A DNA stretch of 64,000 nucleotides from NCBI RefSeq assembly GCF_003018235.1, contig NZ_CP027437.1; one strand, given 5' to 3'. How positions within the stretch are numbered: position 1 is the first letter of the stretch; every line of letters begins with the position of its first letter. Below the pieces are notes generated by a model, which was given only the letters and a program-made list of their open reading frames with translations, was not told where the DNA came from and made no database searches. The DNA is from Escherichia coli. GTDB taxonomy: Bacteria > Pseudomonadota > Gammaproteobacteria > Enterobacterales > Enterobacteriaceae. The position numbers were made by a program, and so were the translations under genes. Shown piece by piece: positions 4,855-53,420 of this stretch.

Positions 4855-6507
<1,653 letters not shown>

Positions 6508-37965: not shown

Positions 37966-38373
37966 CTATGTGTTCATCATCTTGCGCACTAGCTGCATAA
38001 ACAGCTCCTGCTCTTCTCCACTCAAACGCCCCAAAAATTCCTCATCCACGCTGTCACCTATCGGTATCGCCGCAGCAAGTATCTTTTCGCCTTCGGCAGT
38101 CAGCCAGACAAAGCGTCGCCGCTTGTCAGCGGCGTCATGTTCACGTCTGACTAAGCCACGATTTTCCATTCTTGCCAACATTTCTGCCAGCGTTGCTTTG
38201 GTGCTGACGGCTGCTTCCATCAGTGCCACCTGTTCGATACCAGGTTTATCAGCAATGGCGCGCATCACCGCGTACTGTGGTTTGGTCAGATCAGGTAACT
38301 CGTGCTGCCAGCGGGCCGTGTGTTGCTGAAAAAGCTGTCGTAACTGATGGAACGCTTTATTTCGTAACGCCAT
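37966..38373 (-). CDS. MarR/SlyA-family transcriptional regulator
   Basis: 135-aa ORF with winged-helix MarR-like region; divergent from the decarboxylase operon. Confidence 0.8.
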   Translation of the reverse strand: MALRNKAFHQLRQLFQQHTARWQHELPDLTKPQYAVMRAIADKPGIEQVALMEAAVSTKATLAEMLARMENRGLVRREHDAADKRRRFVWLTAEGEKILAAAIPIGDSVDEEFLGRLSGEEQELFMQLVRKMMNT

Positions 38374-38488
38374 GTAAACTCCGGGCTAATTCTCTGTCGC
38401 TATCATAGCGGTTTTTCAGTGACGAAGAAGATGTTGTTACTTTTCAATCCTTGCCGCTGTGGAAATGAAGGAGTATGTTAATAATAAC

Positions 38489-38502
38489 GTTCGTATACGA
38501 AC
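38489..38502. promoter_or_regulatory. Candidate operator: 14-bp perfect palindrome between the regulator and decarboxylase operon
   Basis: gttcgtatacgaac is its own reverse complement; 18 bp upstream of the UbiX-like start. Confidence 0.45.
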
Positions 38503-38519
38503 AATTAAGAGAGTAAGCA

Positions 38520-39113
38520 ATGAAACTGATCGTCGGGATGACAGGGGCTACCGGTGCGCCTCTTGGTGTGGCATTACTGCAAGCGCTGCGGGAGATGCCG
38601 AATGTCGAGACTCATCTGGTGATGTCGAAGTGGGCGAAAACCACTATTAAACTGGAAACGCCTTACAGCGCTCGCGATGTTGCCGCCCTCGCAGACTTCA
38701 GCCATAACCCGGCGGATCAGGCGGCGACTATCTCTTCCGGCTCCTTTCGTACCGACGGCATGATCGTTATTCCATGCAGTATGAAAACGCTCGCCGGTAT
38801 CCGCGCTGGTTACGCCGATGGCCTGGTGGGGCGCGCGGCGGACGTCGTGCTCAAAGAAGGCCGCAAACTGGTGCTGGTGCCGCGTGAAATGCCGCTTAGC
38901 ACAATCCATCTCGAAAATATGCTCGCACTTTCGCGCATGGGCGTGGCGATGGTGCCGCCGATGCCTGCCTTTTATAACCATCCCGAAACGGTAGATGACA
39001 TTGTCCACCACGTGGTAGCCCGCGTGCTGGATCAATTTGGCCTCGAACATCCTCACGCCAGGCGCTGGCAAGGATTGCCGCAGGCCCGGAATTTTTCTCA
39101 GGAGAATGAATAA
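38520..39113 (+). CDS. ecdB: UbiX-like flavin prenyltransferase (Pad1 / decarboxylase B subunit)
   Basis: 197-aa ORF MKLIVGMTGATGAPLGVALLQAL...; symbol from memory of O157-type annotation. Confidence 0.85.
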   Translation: MKLIVGMTGATGAPLGVALLQALREMPNVETHLVMSKWAKTTIKLETPYSARDVAALADFSHNPADQAATISSGSFRTDGMIVIPCSMKTLAGIRAGYADGLVGRAADVVLKEGRKLVLVPREMPLSTIHLENMLALSRMGVAMVPPMPAFYNHPETVDDIVHHVVARVLDQFGLEHPHARRWQGLPQARNFSQENE

Positions 39114-40540
39114 TGGCATTTGATGATTTACGCAGCTTTTTACAGGCGCTTGATGACCACGGCCAGTTACTGAAAATCAGCGAAGAGGTGAACGCGGAAC
39201 CGGATCTGGCAGCCGCAGCCAACGCCACCGGGCGTATCGGCGACGGCGCGCCCGCGCTTTGGTTTGATAATATTCGCGGCTTTATCGATGCCCGCGTGGC
39301 AATGAACACCATCGGTTCCTGGCAGAACCACGCGATTTCCCTCGGCCTGCCGCCAAACACCCCGGTTAAAAAACAGATTGATGAGTTTATCCGCCGCTGG
39401 GATAACTTCCCCATTACCCCGGAGCGCCGCGCTAATCCAGCCTGGGCGCAGAACACCGTCGATGGCGACGAGATCAACCTGTTCGATATTCTGCCGCTGT
39501 TTCGTTTAAACGACGGTGATGGCGGTTTCTATCTCGATAAAGCGTGCGTGGTTTCCCGCGATCCGCTCGACCCGGATAACTTCGGCAAGCAGAACGTCGG
39601 CATCTACCGCATGGAAGTGAAGGGCAAACGTAAGCTCGGCCTGCAACCGGTGCCGATGCACGATATCGCTCTGCATCTGCATAAAGCGGAAGAACGCGGT
39701 GAAGATCTGCCGATTGCCATCACCCTGGGTAACGATCCGATCATCACCCTGATGGGCGCCACGCCGCTGAAATACGATCAGTCTGAGTACGAAATGGCGG
39801 GCGCGCTGCGCGAAAGCCCGTACCCGATCGCCACCGCCCCGCTGACCGGTTTTGATGTGCCGTGGGGCTCGGAAGTGATCCTCGAAGGGGTTATCGAAAG
39901 TCGTAAACGTGAGATTGAAGGGCCGTTCGGTGAGTTTACCGGCCACTACTCCGGCGGGCGTAACATGACCGTGGTGCGTATCGATAAAGTCTCTTACCGT
40001 ACCAAACCGATTTTCGAATCGCTCTATCTTGGTATGCCGTGGACCGAAATCGACTACCTGATGGGGCCTGCCACCTGCGTGCCGCTGTATCAGCAACTGA
40101 AAGCCGAGTTCCCGGAAGTGCAGGCGGTAAACGCCATGTACACCCACGGCCTGTTGGCGATTATCTCCACCAAAAAACGCTACGGCGGCTTTGCCCGCGC
40201 GGTGGGCCTGCGTGCAATGACCACGCCGCACGGTCTGGGCTACGTGAAGATGGTGATTATGGTCGATGAAGACGTTGATCCGTTCAACCTGCCGCAGGTG
40301 ATGTGGGCGCTCTCCTCGAAAGTGAACCCGGCAGGCGACCTGGTGCAGTTGCCAAATATGTCCGTGCTGGAACTCGACCCTGGCTCAAGCCCGGCGGGGA
40401 TCACCGACAAGCTGATTATCGACGCCACCACGCCTGTCGCCCCGGACAACCGTGGTCACTACAGCCAGCCGGTGGTGGATTTACCGGAAACCAAAGCCTG
40501 GGCTGAAAAACTGACCGCTATGCTGGCCGCACGTAAATAA
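39113..40540 (+). CDS. ecdC: UbiD-family (prFMN-dependent) aromatic acid decarboxylase, C subunit
   Basis: 475-aa ORF, UbiD family; start overlaps the UbiX-like stop; symbol from memory. Confidence 0.85.
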   Translation: MAFDDLRSFLQALDDHGQLLKISEEVNAEPDLAAAANATGRIGDGAPALWFDNIRGFIDARVAMNTIGSWQNHAISLGLPPNTPVKKQIDEFIRRWDNFPITPERRANPAWAQNTVDGDEINLFDILPLFRLNDGDGGFYLDKACVVSRDPLDPDNFGKQNVGIYRMEVKGKRKLGLQPVPMHDIALHLHKAEERGEDLPIAITLGNDPIITLMGATPLKYDQSEYEMAGALRESPYPIATAPLTGFDVPWGSEVILEGVIESRKREIEGPFGEFTGHYSGGRNMTVVRIDKVSYRTKPIFESLYLGMPWTEIDYLMGPATCVPLYQQLKAEFPEVQAVNAMYTHGLLAIISTKKRYGGFARAVGLRAMTTPHGLGYVKMVIMVDEDVDPFNLPQVMWALSSKVNPAGDLVQLPNMSVLELDPGSSPAGITDKLIIDATTPVAPDNRGHYSQPVVDLPETKAWAEKLTAMLAARK

Positions 40541-40550
40541 GGAGAACAAG

Positions 40551-40787
40551 ATGATTTGTCCACGTTGTGCCGATGAACAGATTGAAGTGATGGCGAAATC
40601 GCCGGTAAAAGATGTCTGGACGGTCTACCAGTGCCAGCATTGCCTCTATACCTGGCGCGATACCGAACCGCTACGCCGCACCAGCCGCGAACATTATCCC
40701 GAAGCGTTCCGCATGACGCAGAAAGATATTGATGACGCGCCGATGGTGCCGAGCATCCCGCCGCTGCTGGCGGAAGGTAAGCGCTAA
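40551..40787 (+). CDS. ecdD: Decarboxylase small subunit D (Cys-rich, zinc-ribbon-like)
   Basis: 78-aa ORF MICPRCADEQ...CQHC; typical third gene of bsdBCD/kpdBCD-type operons; symbol from memory. Confidence 0.75.
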   Translation: MICPRCADEQIEVMAKSPVKDVWTVYQCQHCLYTWRDTEPLRRTSREHYPEAFRMTQKDIDDAPMVPSIPPLLAEGKR

Positions 40788-40790
40788 ATA

Positions 40791-50485: not shown

Positions 50486-50830
50486 ATGTCCGGCAAGCGT
50501 ATCTCTCGTGAAAAACTGACGATTAAAAAAATGATCGATCTTTATCAAGCGAAATGCCCGCAGGCGTCAGCGGAGCCGGAGCATTACGACGCGCTGTTTG
50601 CCTACGCGCAAAAGCGGCTGGATAAATGTGTGTTCGGCGAAGAGAAACCAGCCTGTAAGCAGTGTCCGGTGCACTGTTACCAGCCTGCAAAGCGTGAAGA
50701 GATGAAACAGATTATGCGTTGGGCCGGGCCGAGAATGCTGTGGCGTCATCCGATCTTAACCGTGCGTCATCTCATCGATGACAAGCGTCCGGTGCCGGAG
50801 TTGCCAGAAAAATATCGTCCAAAGAAATAA
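50486..50830 (+). CDS. ygbA: Nitrosative-stress-associated protein YgbA
   Basis: 114-aa ORF with cysteine motifs CPQ...CKQCPVHC. Confidence 0.85.
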   Translation: MSGKRISREKLTIKKMIDLYQAKCPQASAEPEHYDALFAYAQKRLDKCVFGEEKPACKQCPVHCYQPAKREEMKQIMRWAGPRMLWRHPILTVRHLIDDKRPVPELPEKYRPKK

Positions 50831-50868
50831 ATCTGCCGGAGAGCCATACTCTCCGGCAAATAAGGCGT

Positions 50869-51297
50869 TTACGCTTTGGTGGCAATCAGGATGGCTGATG
50901 CTTTGATCAATGCAATAACGCGCGAGCCAGTGGTGAGTTTCATTTCATCCTGACTTTCATTTGTTACCACTGCCACAATTTCAAAACCCGCATCCGTTTT
51001 GATATGGACAGTGGCGTTCACTGCGCCTTCGGTGATTGTCGACACGCTGCCAGCAAACTGGTTGCGAGCAGAGAATTTTAGTCCACAGTCTTCCGTTGCC
51101 AGCGTTACCCACGGGGCTTTAATCAGGGCAATCGCTTCTTTCCCTTTCGCCAGACCCAGCGCTTGCTGGCTGCTGTGAGTCACAATTGCCACCAGCTTTG
51201 CACCACCTGCCAGCGTCAGTTCTACTTCATCATTCACAGCGCCCATTGCTACTGCGCTAACTGTTCCGGTTAATTGATTTCTTGCTGAAACTGCCAT
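50869..51297 (-). CDS. Di-Mop (tandem TOBE) molybdate/tungstate-binding protein, molbindin
   Basis: ORF 50869-51336; start set at MAVSARNQLTG with RBS aaggagg (142 aa); two ~70-aa halves each beginning SARNQ(L/F)(T/A)G...V. Confidence 0.8.
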   Translation of the reverse strand: MAVSARNQLTGTVSAVAMGAVNDEVELTLAGGAKLVAIVTHSSQQALGLAKGKEAIALIKAPWVTLATEDCGLKFSARNQFAGSVSTITEGAVNATVHIKTDAGFEIVAVVTNESQDEMKLTTGSRVIALIKASAILIATKA

Positions 51298-51341
51298 ACT
51301 GCCTCCTTTCATTGAATGTTGATCGAGTATAACCACATCTG

Positions 51342-53420
51342 TTAAATCAATGCCGATTTATCAATTCCAAGCCGCTTCATCCGTGACAGCAGGGTCGTGC
51401 GTTTCAGCCCCAGACGTTGCGCAGCGCCTTTAGGCCCGGCAACCACGCCGTTGGTTTCTTTCAGCACGCGAACAATCAACTGATATTCATCTTCGCCCTC
51501 CTGGGCGACAACCGTTGCGGCAGGCGGCGTTTCAGGCTCCGGTAAAGCAATATCAGGCAATGACAGCTGCAGCACGTTGCCGCGTGTTAGCAATACCGCG
51601 CGCTCAATGACATTTTCCAGTTCGCGTACGTTACCCGGCCACTCCATGTTGCTCAAGGTGCGCAGCGTCTCCGCAGGAATGCTGTCGATATTGCGCCCCA
51701 GACGACGGGCAATTTTGAAGGTAAAGGCTTTCGCCAGCAGCGGAATATCTTCCGGACGCTCGCGTAGTGGCGGCAGGTGGATCGGGAATACATTCAGGCG
51801 GTAATAGAGATCGCTACGGAACTCACGGTCGGCGACCATTTTTTTCAGATCGCGGTTAGTTGCGGCGATTAGACGCACGTCCGTCTGAATGATTTTGTTG
51901 CTGCCGAGACGTTCAAACTCCTGTTCCTGTAATACACGCAGCAACTTCGGCTGTAACTCCAGTGGCATATCGCCCACTTCGTCGAGGAACAGGGAGCTTT
52001 TATCCGCCAGTTCAAAACGACCGATACGCTGGGCGCTGGCACCGGTAAAAGCCCCACGCTCATGACCAAACAGATCGCTCTCCAGCAATCCGGCAGGCAT
52101 TGCCGCGCAGTTCATTTTGACCATGCGGCGATTATTACGCCCACTGAGATTATGGATAGCACGGGCAATCAGCTCTTTACCCGTGCCAGTTTCACCGAGG
52201 ATCAGCACGGTACTGTCACTTTGCGCCACCATTTCAACTTGTTTAAGTACGCTGTACATGGCTTCGCTGCGGCCAATAATCTCGCCAAATTCACTATCAA
52301 CATTGTTGAGCTGCTCGGTCAGGGCGAGGTTTTCATCAACCAGCCGTTCTTTCAGACGATGAATTTCCTGATAGGCGAGGGCGTTATCGACAGCGATTGC
52401 CACACGTTCGGCAATCTGGCGCAGTAAGCTCAGATTGGTAGTGGTAAATACTTTCTCTTCGCATTGCGCCAGTTTCAGCACGCCCAGCATGGTGTTGCCA
52501 GACATCAGCGGTAACAGGCACAAGGTTTGAATCTGGTTGCCCCAGGTGTCGAACAACATGCGTTCATAGGGGGCTAAATCGTCCCGCTCGTGGAGATTAA
52601 TCAACAACATCTCTTTACTTTTGAACACGCGTTCGGTGAGGGTTCCGGCTTCATCGACTTCGCTCTGTTCGTGGGCGGGATGTTGTTTATCAAGATAGTG
52701 AGTGGAGTAGATGTTGAGTTTGTTTTTACGGTGGCTGCGTAAGACAATGCTGATATCGTCAATGTCGAAATAGTAATGGATTTCTTTGGCGACTTCGCTG
52801 ACCAGTTCGTCCATATCCAGGCGGGAAAGCACCGCGTTGGTAATGGCAACCAGGATGCGGAAGTTATCGCGCTCCCGGCATAACAACTCATAGTCGACAT
52901 TATTGACGACGCGGCTCTGGATTTGTTCGGTGACGACAGAAACGATCTGCGTAAATGTTTGCAGACGATTGAACTCTTTTTCGCTCCAGGGGCGATCGTC
53001 ATAACGAATAAATTCACAGCCACCAAAAATATGCCCTTCCGCCGCCAGTGGCATCAGGCAATAGTGACCAAATTTTGGGTATAGCCCACCTGCGGCCAGC
53101 TGCGGCCAGGTTTCACAAAATTCTTCGTAACTGCAATGCAGCGTATCAGGGCGCGACAAAATGCTGCGTACCGGACCGTGTGCCAGAACAGTTTCGTCTT
53201 CATATTTAATGGGGGTGTCTTTTTCACGCGATGCGTAATAAGACGCACGTTGAGTCTGCGCTTGCCACAACACAATAGCCGCGTTGTCGGCGAGCGCAGA
53301 ACGCTTTACCAGTTGCGAAAGAGCCTCACACAGCGAGGCCAGATCGGGCTGCTGCAATAGTGTCCGAGTGATGTCGAACAACCCTTGTTGTCCGAGATCA
53401 CTCATCGGTGTATATGACAT
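51342..53420 (-). CDS. fhlA: Formate hydrogenlyase transcriptional activator (sigma54-dependent)
   Basis: ORF 51342-53456; start set at MSYTPMSDLGQQGLFD; GAF domains, AAA+ sigma54-interaction domain (GETGTGKE, GAFTGA) and C-terminal HTH. Confidence 0.95.
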   Translation of the reverse strand: MSYTPMSDLGQQGLFDITRTLLQQPDLASLCEALSQLVKRSALADNAAIVLWQAQTQRASYYASREKDTPIKYEDETVLAHGPVRSILSRPDTLHCSYEEFCETWPQLAAGGLYPKFGHYCLMPLAAEGHIFGGCEFIRYDDRPWSEKEFNRLQTFTQIVSVVTEQIQSRVVNNVDYELLCRERDNFRILVAITNAVLSRLDMDELVSEVAKEIHYYFDIDDISIVLRSHRKNKLNIYSTHYLDKQHPAHEQSEVDEAGTLTERVFKSKEMLLINLHERDDLAPYERMLFDTWGNQIQTLCLLPLMSGNTMLGVLKLAQCEEKVFTTTNLSLLRQIAERVAIAVDNALAYQEIHRLKERLVDENLALTEQLNNVDSEFGEIIGRSEAMYSVLKQVEMVAQSDSTVLILGETGTGKELIARAIHNLSGRNNRRMVKMNCAAMPAGLLESDLFGHERGAFTGASAQRIGRFELADKSSLFLDEVGDMPLELQPKLLRVLQEQEFERLGSNKIIQTDVRLIAATNRDLKKMVADREFRSDLYYRLNVFPIHLPPLRERPEDIPLLAKAFTFKIARRLGRNIDSIPAETLRTLSNMEWPGNVRELENVIERAVLLTRGNVLQLSLPDIALPEPETPPAATVVAQEGEDEYQLIVRVLKETNGVVAGPKGAAQRLGLKRTTLLSRMKRLGIDKSALI

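Follow-up and report, generated by a model that had tools for sequence, protein, structure and literature searches.

A ModG-type molbindin gene behind fhlA of Escherichia coli, probably ancestral and deleted in the lineages of K-12

In the present study a short gene between fhlA and ygbA of Escherichia coli, here called mop, was analyzed in a stretch of 64,000 nucleotides (contig NZ_CP027437.1, assembly GCF_003018235.1), which is referred to as the window. It probably encodes a ModG-type binder of molybdate or tungstate that is ancestral, stands last in the hyp-fhlA unit, buffers molybdenum and was deleted in the lineages of K-12. The gene is an already known and annotated member of a known family and its polymorphism is already in print: the exact 142-aa protein, which occurs on at least 1,000 contigs, is listed in RefSeq under 'MULTISPECIES: TOBE domain-containing protein [Enterobacteriaceae]', some databases call it 'molybdate transport system regulatory protein' or 'transporter', and a paper of 2020 noted the gene at the fhlA-ygbA site in passing, naming it 'modE' (PMC7232297). 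Literature searches yielded no functional study of an enterobacterial molbindin or of an fhlA-linked TOBE gene. Added here are the polarity of the deletion in K-12, the assignment to the ModG type and the conserved placement as the last gene of the hyp-fhlA unit. The locus comprises the following features:

50869-51297, minus strand: mop/modG-like coding sequence for 142 aa (coordinates with the stop codon) with two tandem Mop/TOBE domains (residues 1-70 and 73-142)
51302-51308, minus strand: AAGGAGG ribosome-binding site, its end separated from the ATG by 4 nt
51298-51341, minus strand: fhlA-mop spacer of 44 nt, with no terminator-like hairpin (z = +1.1)
51326-51331, minus strand: TATACT, a -10-like hexamer within the conserved GGYTATACT, candidate promoter element
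50831-50861, no strand: G+C-rich hairpin of 14 bp separating the convergent genes mop and ygbA (-28.5 kcal/mol, z = -5.25)
51342-53420, minus strand: fhlA, formate hydrogenlyase transcriptional activator, 692 aa, directly upstream of mop
50486-50830, plus strand: ygbA, 114 aa, convergent with mop (117 aa in K-12)
50831-51341, no strand: ygbA-fhlA intergenic segment of 511 bp, polymorphic in E. coli (36 bp in K-12-type genomes)

The reading frame of mop extends on the minus strand from an ATG at 51297 to a stop codon at 50869-50871 and specifies a protein that begins with MAVSARNQ and ends with IATKA; the stop codon of fhlA (51342-51344) lies 44 nt before this ATG on the same strand. The first-pass annotation had described a 142-aa frame of two tandem Mop/TOBE domains that starts 44 bp behind fhlA and has a strong ribosome-binding site; it was correct in coordinates, length, ribosome-binding site, spacing and strand. 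A GTG start at 51336, given in a program-made list of open reading frames, would lead to an alternative form of 155 aa, which was rejected because the region 5' of the ribosome-binding site lacks coding conservation. The ATG start of the 142-aa form is kept in 35 of 35 orthologues, the sequence 5' of the ribosome-binding site diverges, and a GGAG(G) core precedes the orthologues in every genus examined. With 50.3% against 52.3% for the whole window the G+C content of mop was regarded as native; its GC3 is 0.47 against 0.57-0.61 in neighbouring genes. As to the nomenclature of the upstream gene, PGAP-annotated RefSeq genomes of E. coli give fhlA (51342-53420 in the window) the symbol 'flhA' and the product name 'formate hydrogenlyase transcriptional activator FlhA', a symbol that collides with the name of a flagellar export gene; MG1655 is correctly labelled fhlA.

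Two TOBE/Mop domains are the sole domains detected in the protein. Pfam TOBE (PF03459) matches it twice, at residues 4-66 (E = 1.6e-17) and 76-137 (E = 6.2e-16), the two domains that had been expected, and NCBIfam TIGR00638 'Mop' matches in two stretches with 142 bits against a cutoff of 55. The two halves are identical at 30 of 70 residues and each opens with SARNQ(L/F)(T/A)G. The Pfam and NCBIfam profiles detected no DNA-binding (HTH), ATPase or other partner domain. The ModE profile (NF007957) reaches 88 bits against a cutoff of 369 and is covered only at positions 124-261 of 263, the start of the protein being equivalent to ModE residue 123; a ModE regulator was thus ruled out, with the score far under the cutoff and the N-terminal DNA-binding part absent. 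From the ModC and WtpC profiles only the C-terminal TOBE part (positions 283-352) is matched, with 47-49 bits against cutoffs of 285-440, and the identity of an ABC-transporter ATPase was ruled out since no ABC ATPase domain stands ahead of TOBE. As it possesses neither a DNA-binding nor an ATPase domain, the labels 'modE', 'molybdate transport system regulatory protein' and 'transporter' are misnomers.

Among solved structures the best relative is ModG of Azotobacter vinelandii (1H9J; phmmer E = 5e-33, residues 1-140, 49% identity), followed by the di-Mop half of E. coli ModE with 34-36% identity. The AlphaFold model of the protein (pLDDT 96.2) was superimposed by Foldseek on ModG with TM scores of 0.95/0.93 and an rmsd of 1.3 Å over 142 columns, and on the di-Mop half of ModE with TM scores of 0.88-0.90. 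In the structure of Tub of Eubacterium limosum, type 1 tungstate is contacted by the backbone of A20-V21-N22 and type 2 tungstate by S4, R6, S40, K60 and A61 (PMC11980592). Both halves align gap-free to Tub, and by this alignment the equivalent ligand positions are S4, R6, A20-V21-N22, T40, K60 and A61 in the first half and S76, R78, A92-V93-N94, T112, K132 and A133 in the second. In an alignment of 23 sequences, ModG and ModE among them, conservation at these positions is 90% or higher, up to invariance, and the second-half set is missing from ModE alone. Since domain architecture, similarity to ModG, fold and ligand positions all match, the protein is a ModG-type molbindin on every feature that sequence and predicted fold can test. 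A cysteine in the inter-domain linker (C71, within an E-D/E-C-G motif, codon at about 51085-51087) is conserved across the aligned orthologues of Enterobacterales, and an equivalent is absent from ModG, ModE and distant homologues in the alignment.

ModG of A. vinelandii (PDB 1H9J, 1H9K, 1H9M), a cytoplasmic molybdate-binding di-Mop protein, is with 145 aa nearly as long as the 142-aa protein described here, and both consist of two Mop domains only and carry ligand residues in both halves. They differ in the linker, where Cys 71 is found in the enterobacterial orthologues, and in their surroundings: modG adjoins mod transport genes, whereas mop closes the hyp-fhlA unit behind fhlA; modG is controlled by ModE, whereas no ModE-box-like site lies near mop; and, unlike A. 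vinelandii, the host of mop does not fix nitrogen. Linkage to mod genes and control by ModE are traits of the genomic setting rather than of the family. With the C-terminal half of E. coli ModE (PDB 1H9R, 1H9S, 1O7L) the di-Mop fold is shared, and by alignment the first half of the protein shares the positions equivalent to ModE S126, R128, T163, S166, K183 and A184. Unlike ModE, however, it has no N-terminal DNA-binding domain, and its second half retains the ligand residues which ModE lost. Single-domain molbindins of about 70 aa (MopII of Clostridium pasteurianum, 1GUG; Mop of Sporomusa ovata, 1FR3; Tub of E. limosum, 9BEB) align end to end with each half, with about 40% identity to Tub, and have the same type 1 and type 2 ligand positions as each half; in contrast to them the two domains are fused, so that by analogy with ModG three chains, not six, would form the eight-site assembly.

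The 511-bp segment with mop was found in 1,892 of 5,426 complete E. coli genomes (about 35%), always in single copy and on the chromosome; carriers include CFT073 (C_RS15650), Nissle 1917 and ATCC 25922, and E. coli IAI39, E. albertii and E. fergusonii have been reported with 'modE' between fhlA and ygbA (PMC7232297). In MG1655 fhlA (b2731) and ygbA (b2732) are separated by 36 bp with no gene between, as the first-pass annotation had stated for K-12. Eighteen genomes lacking mop, sampled evenly down the ranking and including a K-12 derivative, O157:H7 and O26, all span exactly 935 bp of the 1,401-bp query and hence display one allele shorter by 466 bp. Statements on the presence of mop in lineages refer to the named strains in the sampled rows of the 5,426 genomes.

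Beyond E. coli, a scan with one genome per species produced 49 loci. In 35 of them, representing about 15 genera, mop adjoins fhlA in the same orientation with hypE preceding; these comprise Citrobacter, Pseudocitrobacter, Raoultella, Klebsiella, Enterobacter, Pluralibacter, Kluyvera, Yokenella, Lelliottia, Kosakonia and others and, within Escherichia, E. albertii and one Escherichia clade genome. Spacers between fhlA and mop measure 36-56 nt in most genera, and all 35 fhlA-adjacent orthologues have exactly 142 codons. With a dN/dS of 0.02-0.09 against the 35 orthologues, at a dS that is often saturated, the gene is under strong purifying selection; this ratio together with the constant length establishes a real gene far beyond chance. 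A pseudogene or a decaying modE fragment was rejected on the same two grounds.

The remaining orthologues are placed differently. Those of Serratia, Edwardsiella and Cedecea (68-73% identity) are not beside fhlA; in Serratia they are flanked by genes for an AI-2E-family transporter and a LysE-family exporter, and in Edwardsiella the context is another unrelated one. In three Phytobacter loci (L035, L040 and L047, at about 4870-5000) mop follows directly after hypE and fhlA is absent from the locus; the hypE-mop spacer of about 130 nt contains a conserved inverted repeat, ATACCCAT-N9-ATGGGTAT. The orthologue found in some Salmonella (89% identity) is likewise not adjacent to fhlA. A location at the SPI-1 boundary was considered and dismissed, as the gene lies elsewhere, by an IS21 fragment: on two Salmonella enterica contigs (L052:6001-6429 and L053:4025-4453) it is found outside the fhlA/SPI-1 locus beside an IstB_IS21 fragment, in the neighbourhood of a TetR gene, a YedY/YedZ-like molybdoenzyme pair and a fimbrial usher gene. 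This relocated copy retains the leader of the fhlA-mop spacer, GGCTATACT...GAAAGGAGGCAGT, and leader and gene seem to have moved into the Salmonella site as one unit.

The absence of the gene from K-12 had led the first-pass annotation to propose an accessory insertion, that is a horizontal gain of mop by some E. coli between fhlA and ygbA. Such a gain could explain why K-12, O157:H7 and O26 are without the gene; islands are known to be gained preferentially in the fhlA-mutS interval (PMC7232297), the Salmonella copy by an IS21 fragment implies that mop can move, and its GC3 of 0.47 falls under that of the neighbours. However, we consider this explanation very improbable. Position and orientation are identical in E. 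albertii, the Escherichia clade genome, Citrobacter, Klebsiella, Raoultella and Enterobacter and also in Kluyvera, Pluralibacter, Kosakonia, Yokenella and Lelliottia, synteny of fhlA and mop thus extending over at least 15 genera; genes of mobile elements and flanking repeats are absent; all sampled genomes without mop present a single identical shorter allele; and the divergence of mop is congruent with that of the flanking genes. Its dS against E. albertii is 0.37 (fhlA, ygbA and hypE: 0.65, 0.33 and 0.56) and against Citrobacter 0.98 (1.33, 1.89 and 1.05), and both dS and dN track those of the three genes in E. albertii, the Escherichia clade genome and Citrobacter. With the native G+C content, these observations contradict an insertion, and the comparison of the ygbA-fhlA spacer across genomes points to deletion, not gain. 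On this multi-genus synteny, congruent divergence, native G+C and single shorter allele rests the parsimonious reading that mop is an ancestral gene of Enterobacteriaceae, deleted once toward strains of the K-12, O157 and O26 type. A single deletion of spacer and reading frame would have removed it from E. coli lineages including K-12, O157:H7 and O26, while B2 and F strains, E. albertii and other genera would have retained it.

Alignment of the two alleles places the right edge of the difference exactly at the stop codon of fhlA and the left edge at the last codons of ygbA. The hairpin behind fhlA in K-12 resembles the one that separates ygbA and mop in Citrobacter amalonaticus, and so K-12 has kept the terminator and is without the spacer and the mop reading frame. 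The ends of ygbA differ between the alleles, with 114 aa in the window and 117 aa ending in ...KKPHE in K-12, and the shared hairpin also differs in sequence (window 50820-50866 against L001:1925-1976 of the K-12-type allele), that of K-12 being nearer to the hairpin of C. amalonaticus than to that of the window. Because of these differences in ygbA end and hairpin the deletion allele may descend from another ancestral haplotype. Furthermore, the mop reading frame of the window is identical to that of CFT073 at 424 of 426 nt and to that of strain 1190 at 418 of 426; yet when the entire ygbA-mop-fhlA stretch of 1.4 kb is compared, strain 1190 matches best. That mop alone is nearer to CFT073 suggests that small-scale recombination has made the locus a mosaic.

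In another part of the window, at about 37967-40788 in the rpoS-mutS interval, genes for a MarR-family regulator and for hydroxyarylic acid decarboxylase B, C and D are present, as assigned from the collinear sequence of E. coli strain 1190 (98.8% over 33.6 kb); they presumably belong to the polymorphic rpoS-mutS (o454-nlpD) segment absent from K-12.

Concerning expression, no terminator was found between fhlA and mop by a consensus scan, and the fold of the spacer is no better than that of shuffled sequences (z = +1.1). On the mop strand, a U-rich tract comes after the hairpin at 50831-50861. This hairpin is likely the terminator of a hyp-fhlA-mop transcript and probably terminates in both directions. 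With no terminator before and a strong one after the gene, read-through of mop from the hyp-fhlA unit would be the simplest expectation. A consensus scan revealed no sigma-70 promoter in the spacer or at the 3' end of fhlA, and GGYTATACT is only -10-like, no acceptable -35 hexamer being present at 16-18 nt. The motif is conserved in Escherichia, Citrobacter and Kluyvera and is also carried by the relocated copy of Salmonella, and in Lelliottia a terminator-like hairpin follows right after fhlA; for these reasons expression may be at least partly independent of fhlA, from a promoter of its own. No ModE-box-like site (TATAT-N7-TAYAT with at most one mismatch) was detected near mop or hyp-hyc, the window containing four matches against about three by chance, and by eye neither the fhlA-mop spacer nor the inverted repeat between hypE and mop of Phytobacter fits the spacing of a Mo-box.

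By analogy with ModG, mop most likely provides what we infer to be a cytoplasmic molybdate or tungstate buffer expressed with the hyp-fhlA operon. In the proposed mechanism a small, cytoplasmic di-Mop binder of the ModG type would assemble, like ModG, as a trimer (a pseudo-hexamer of Mop domains) and take up oxyanions at the three-fold axis (type 1) and at the domain interfaces (type 2). As last gene of the hyp-fhlA transcription unit, with which it would be co-transcribed, mop would probably be expressed alongside FhlA and the hydrogenase-maturation proteins when cells ferment and formate acts as inducer, and its product would serve as a buffer or store of molybdate for molybdoenzymes, among them formate dehydrogenase H (FDH-H) of formate hydrogenlyase (FHL). 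Homology to ModG and the position of the gene make molybdate storage or sensing tied to FHL, as suggested in the first-pass annotation, a reasonable assumption. However, a role specific for FHL is weakened by the orthologues of Serratia, Edwardsiella and Salmonella in unrelated contexts, which argue for a more general part in the homeostasis of molybdenum and tungsten. The gene is dispensable, since about 65% of the complete E. coli genomes are without it, and K-12 has an active FHL in the absence of mop.

Other functions have to be weighed against such a buffer. The protein might be a regulatory accessory that senses molybdate and, through contacts with FhlA, ModE or MoeA, couples transcription of hyc, hyp and fdhF or cofactor insertion to molybdenum. 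It is a free counterpart of the molybdenum-sensing half of ModE (36% identity), its linkage to the regulator gene fhlA is tight and ancient, with the short spacers given above in most genera, and in Phytobacter it persists after hypE without fhlA in the locus. The Mop molbindin of Rhodobacter capsulatus reportedly interacts with the ModE-like regulator MopB, and transcription of FHL in K-12 is known, from work of the Shanmugam laboratory, to depend on molybdate via ModE and MoeA. Yet this molybdate-dependent regulation of hyc occurs in a strain lacking mop, orthologues elsewhere are unlinked to fhlA, a DNA-binding or other partner domain is missing, and complete type 1 and type 2 sets occupy both halves as in the storage protein ModG, unlike ModE. 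Owing to these storage-type ligand sets and to hyc regulation in K-12 without the gene, a sensor has less support than the ModG-type buffer, and we regard it as rather unlikely. Slightly less credence still is given to a dedicated part of the ancestral FHL system, a molybdate sensor or chaperone that would gate FhlA-dependent transcription or, during fermentation, pass molybdate to the cofactor pathway of FDH-H, which appears unlikely.

The choice between molybdate and tungstate is unreadable from sequence (PMC11980592), and the protein might also be a tungstate-specific, 'TudG'-type binder, sequestering tungstate and thereby shielding molybdoenzymes like FDH-H from mis-metallation, or supplying tungsten. 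Molbindins bind both oxyanions, structures of the di-Mop part of ModE are known with tungstate as well as with molybdate, and di-TOBE proteins of gut microbes are often predicted to be associated with tungsten (PMC11980592). In the loci examined, however, neither a tungsten-specific TupABC transporter nor a tungstoenzyme gene was seen. Molybdenum, moreover, is the metal of the formate dehydrogenases of E. coli, tungstate being inhibitory, and specificity for tungstate is considered improbable. The preferred reading accordingly remains the ModG-type buffer, for whose product 'ModG-type molbindin' would be the accurate name.

K-12, the reference for formate hydrogenlyase and for molybdenum regulation, is thus without a gene that is carried by most Enterobacteriaceae and by about one third of E. 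coli. If the protein were, after all, a dedicated part of FHL, decades of studies in K-12 on how molybdate governs hyc and fdhF via ModE and MoeA would describe a system missing one of its original parts. If it buffers or senses molybdate for FDH-H, hydrogen and formate metabolism under molybdenum limitation could differ by lineage.
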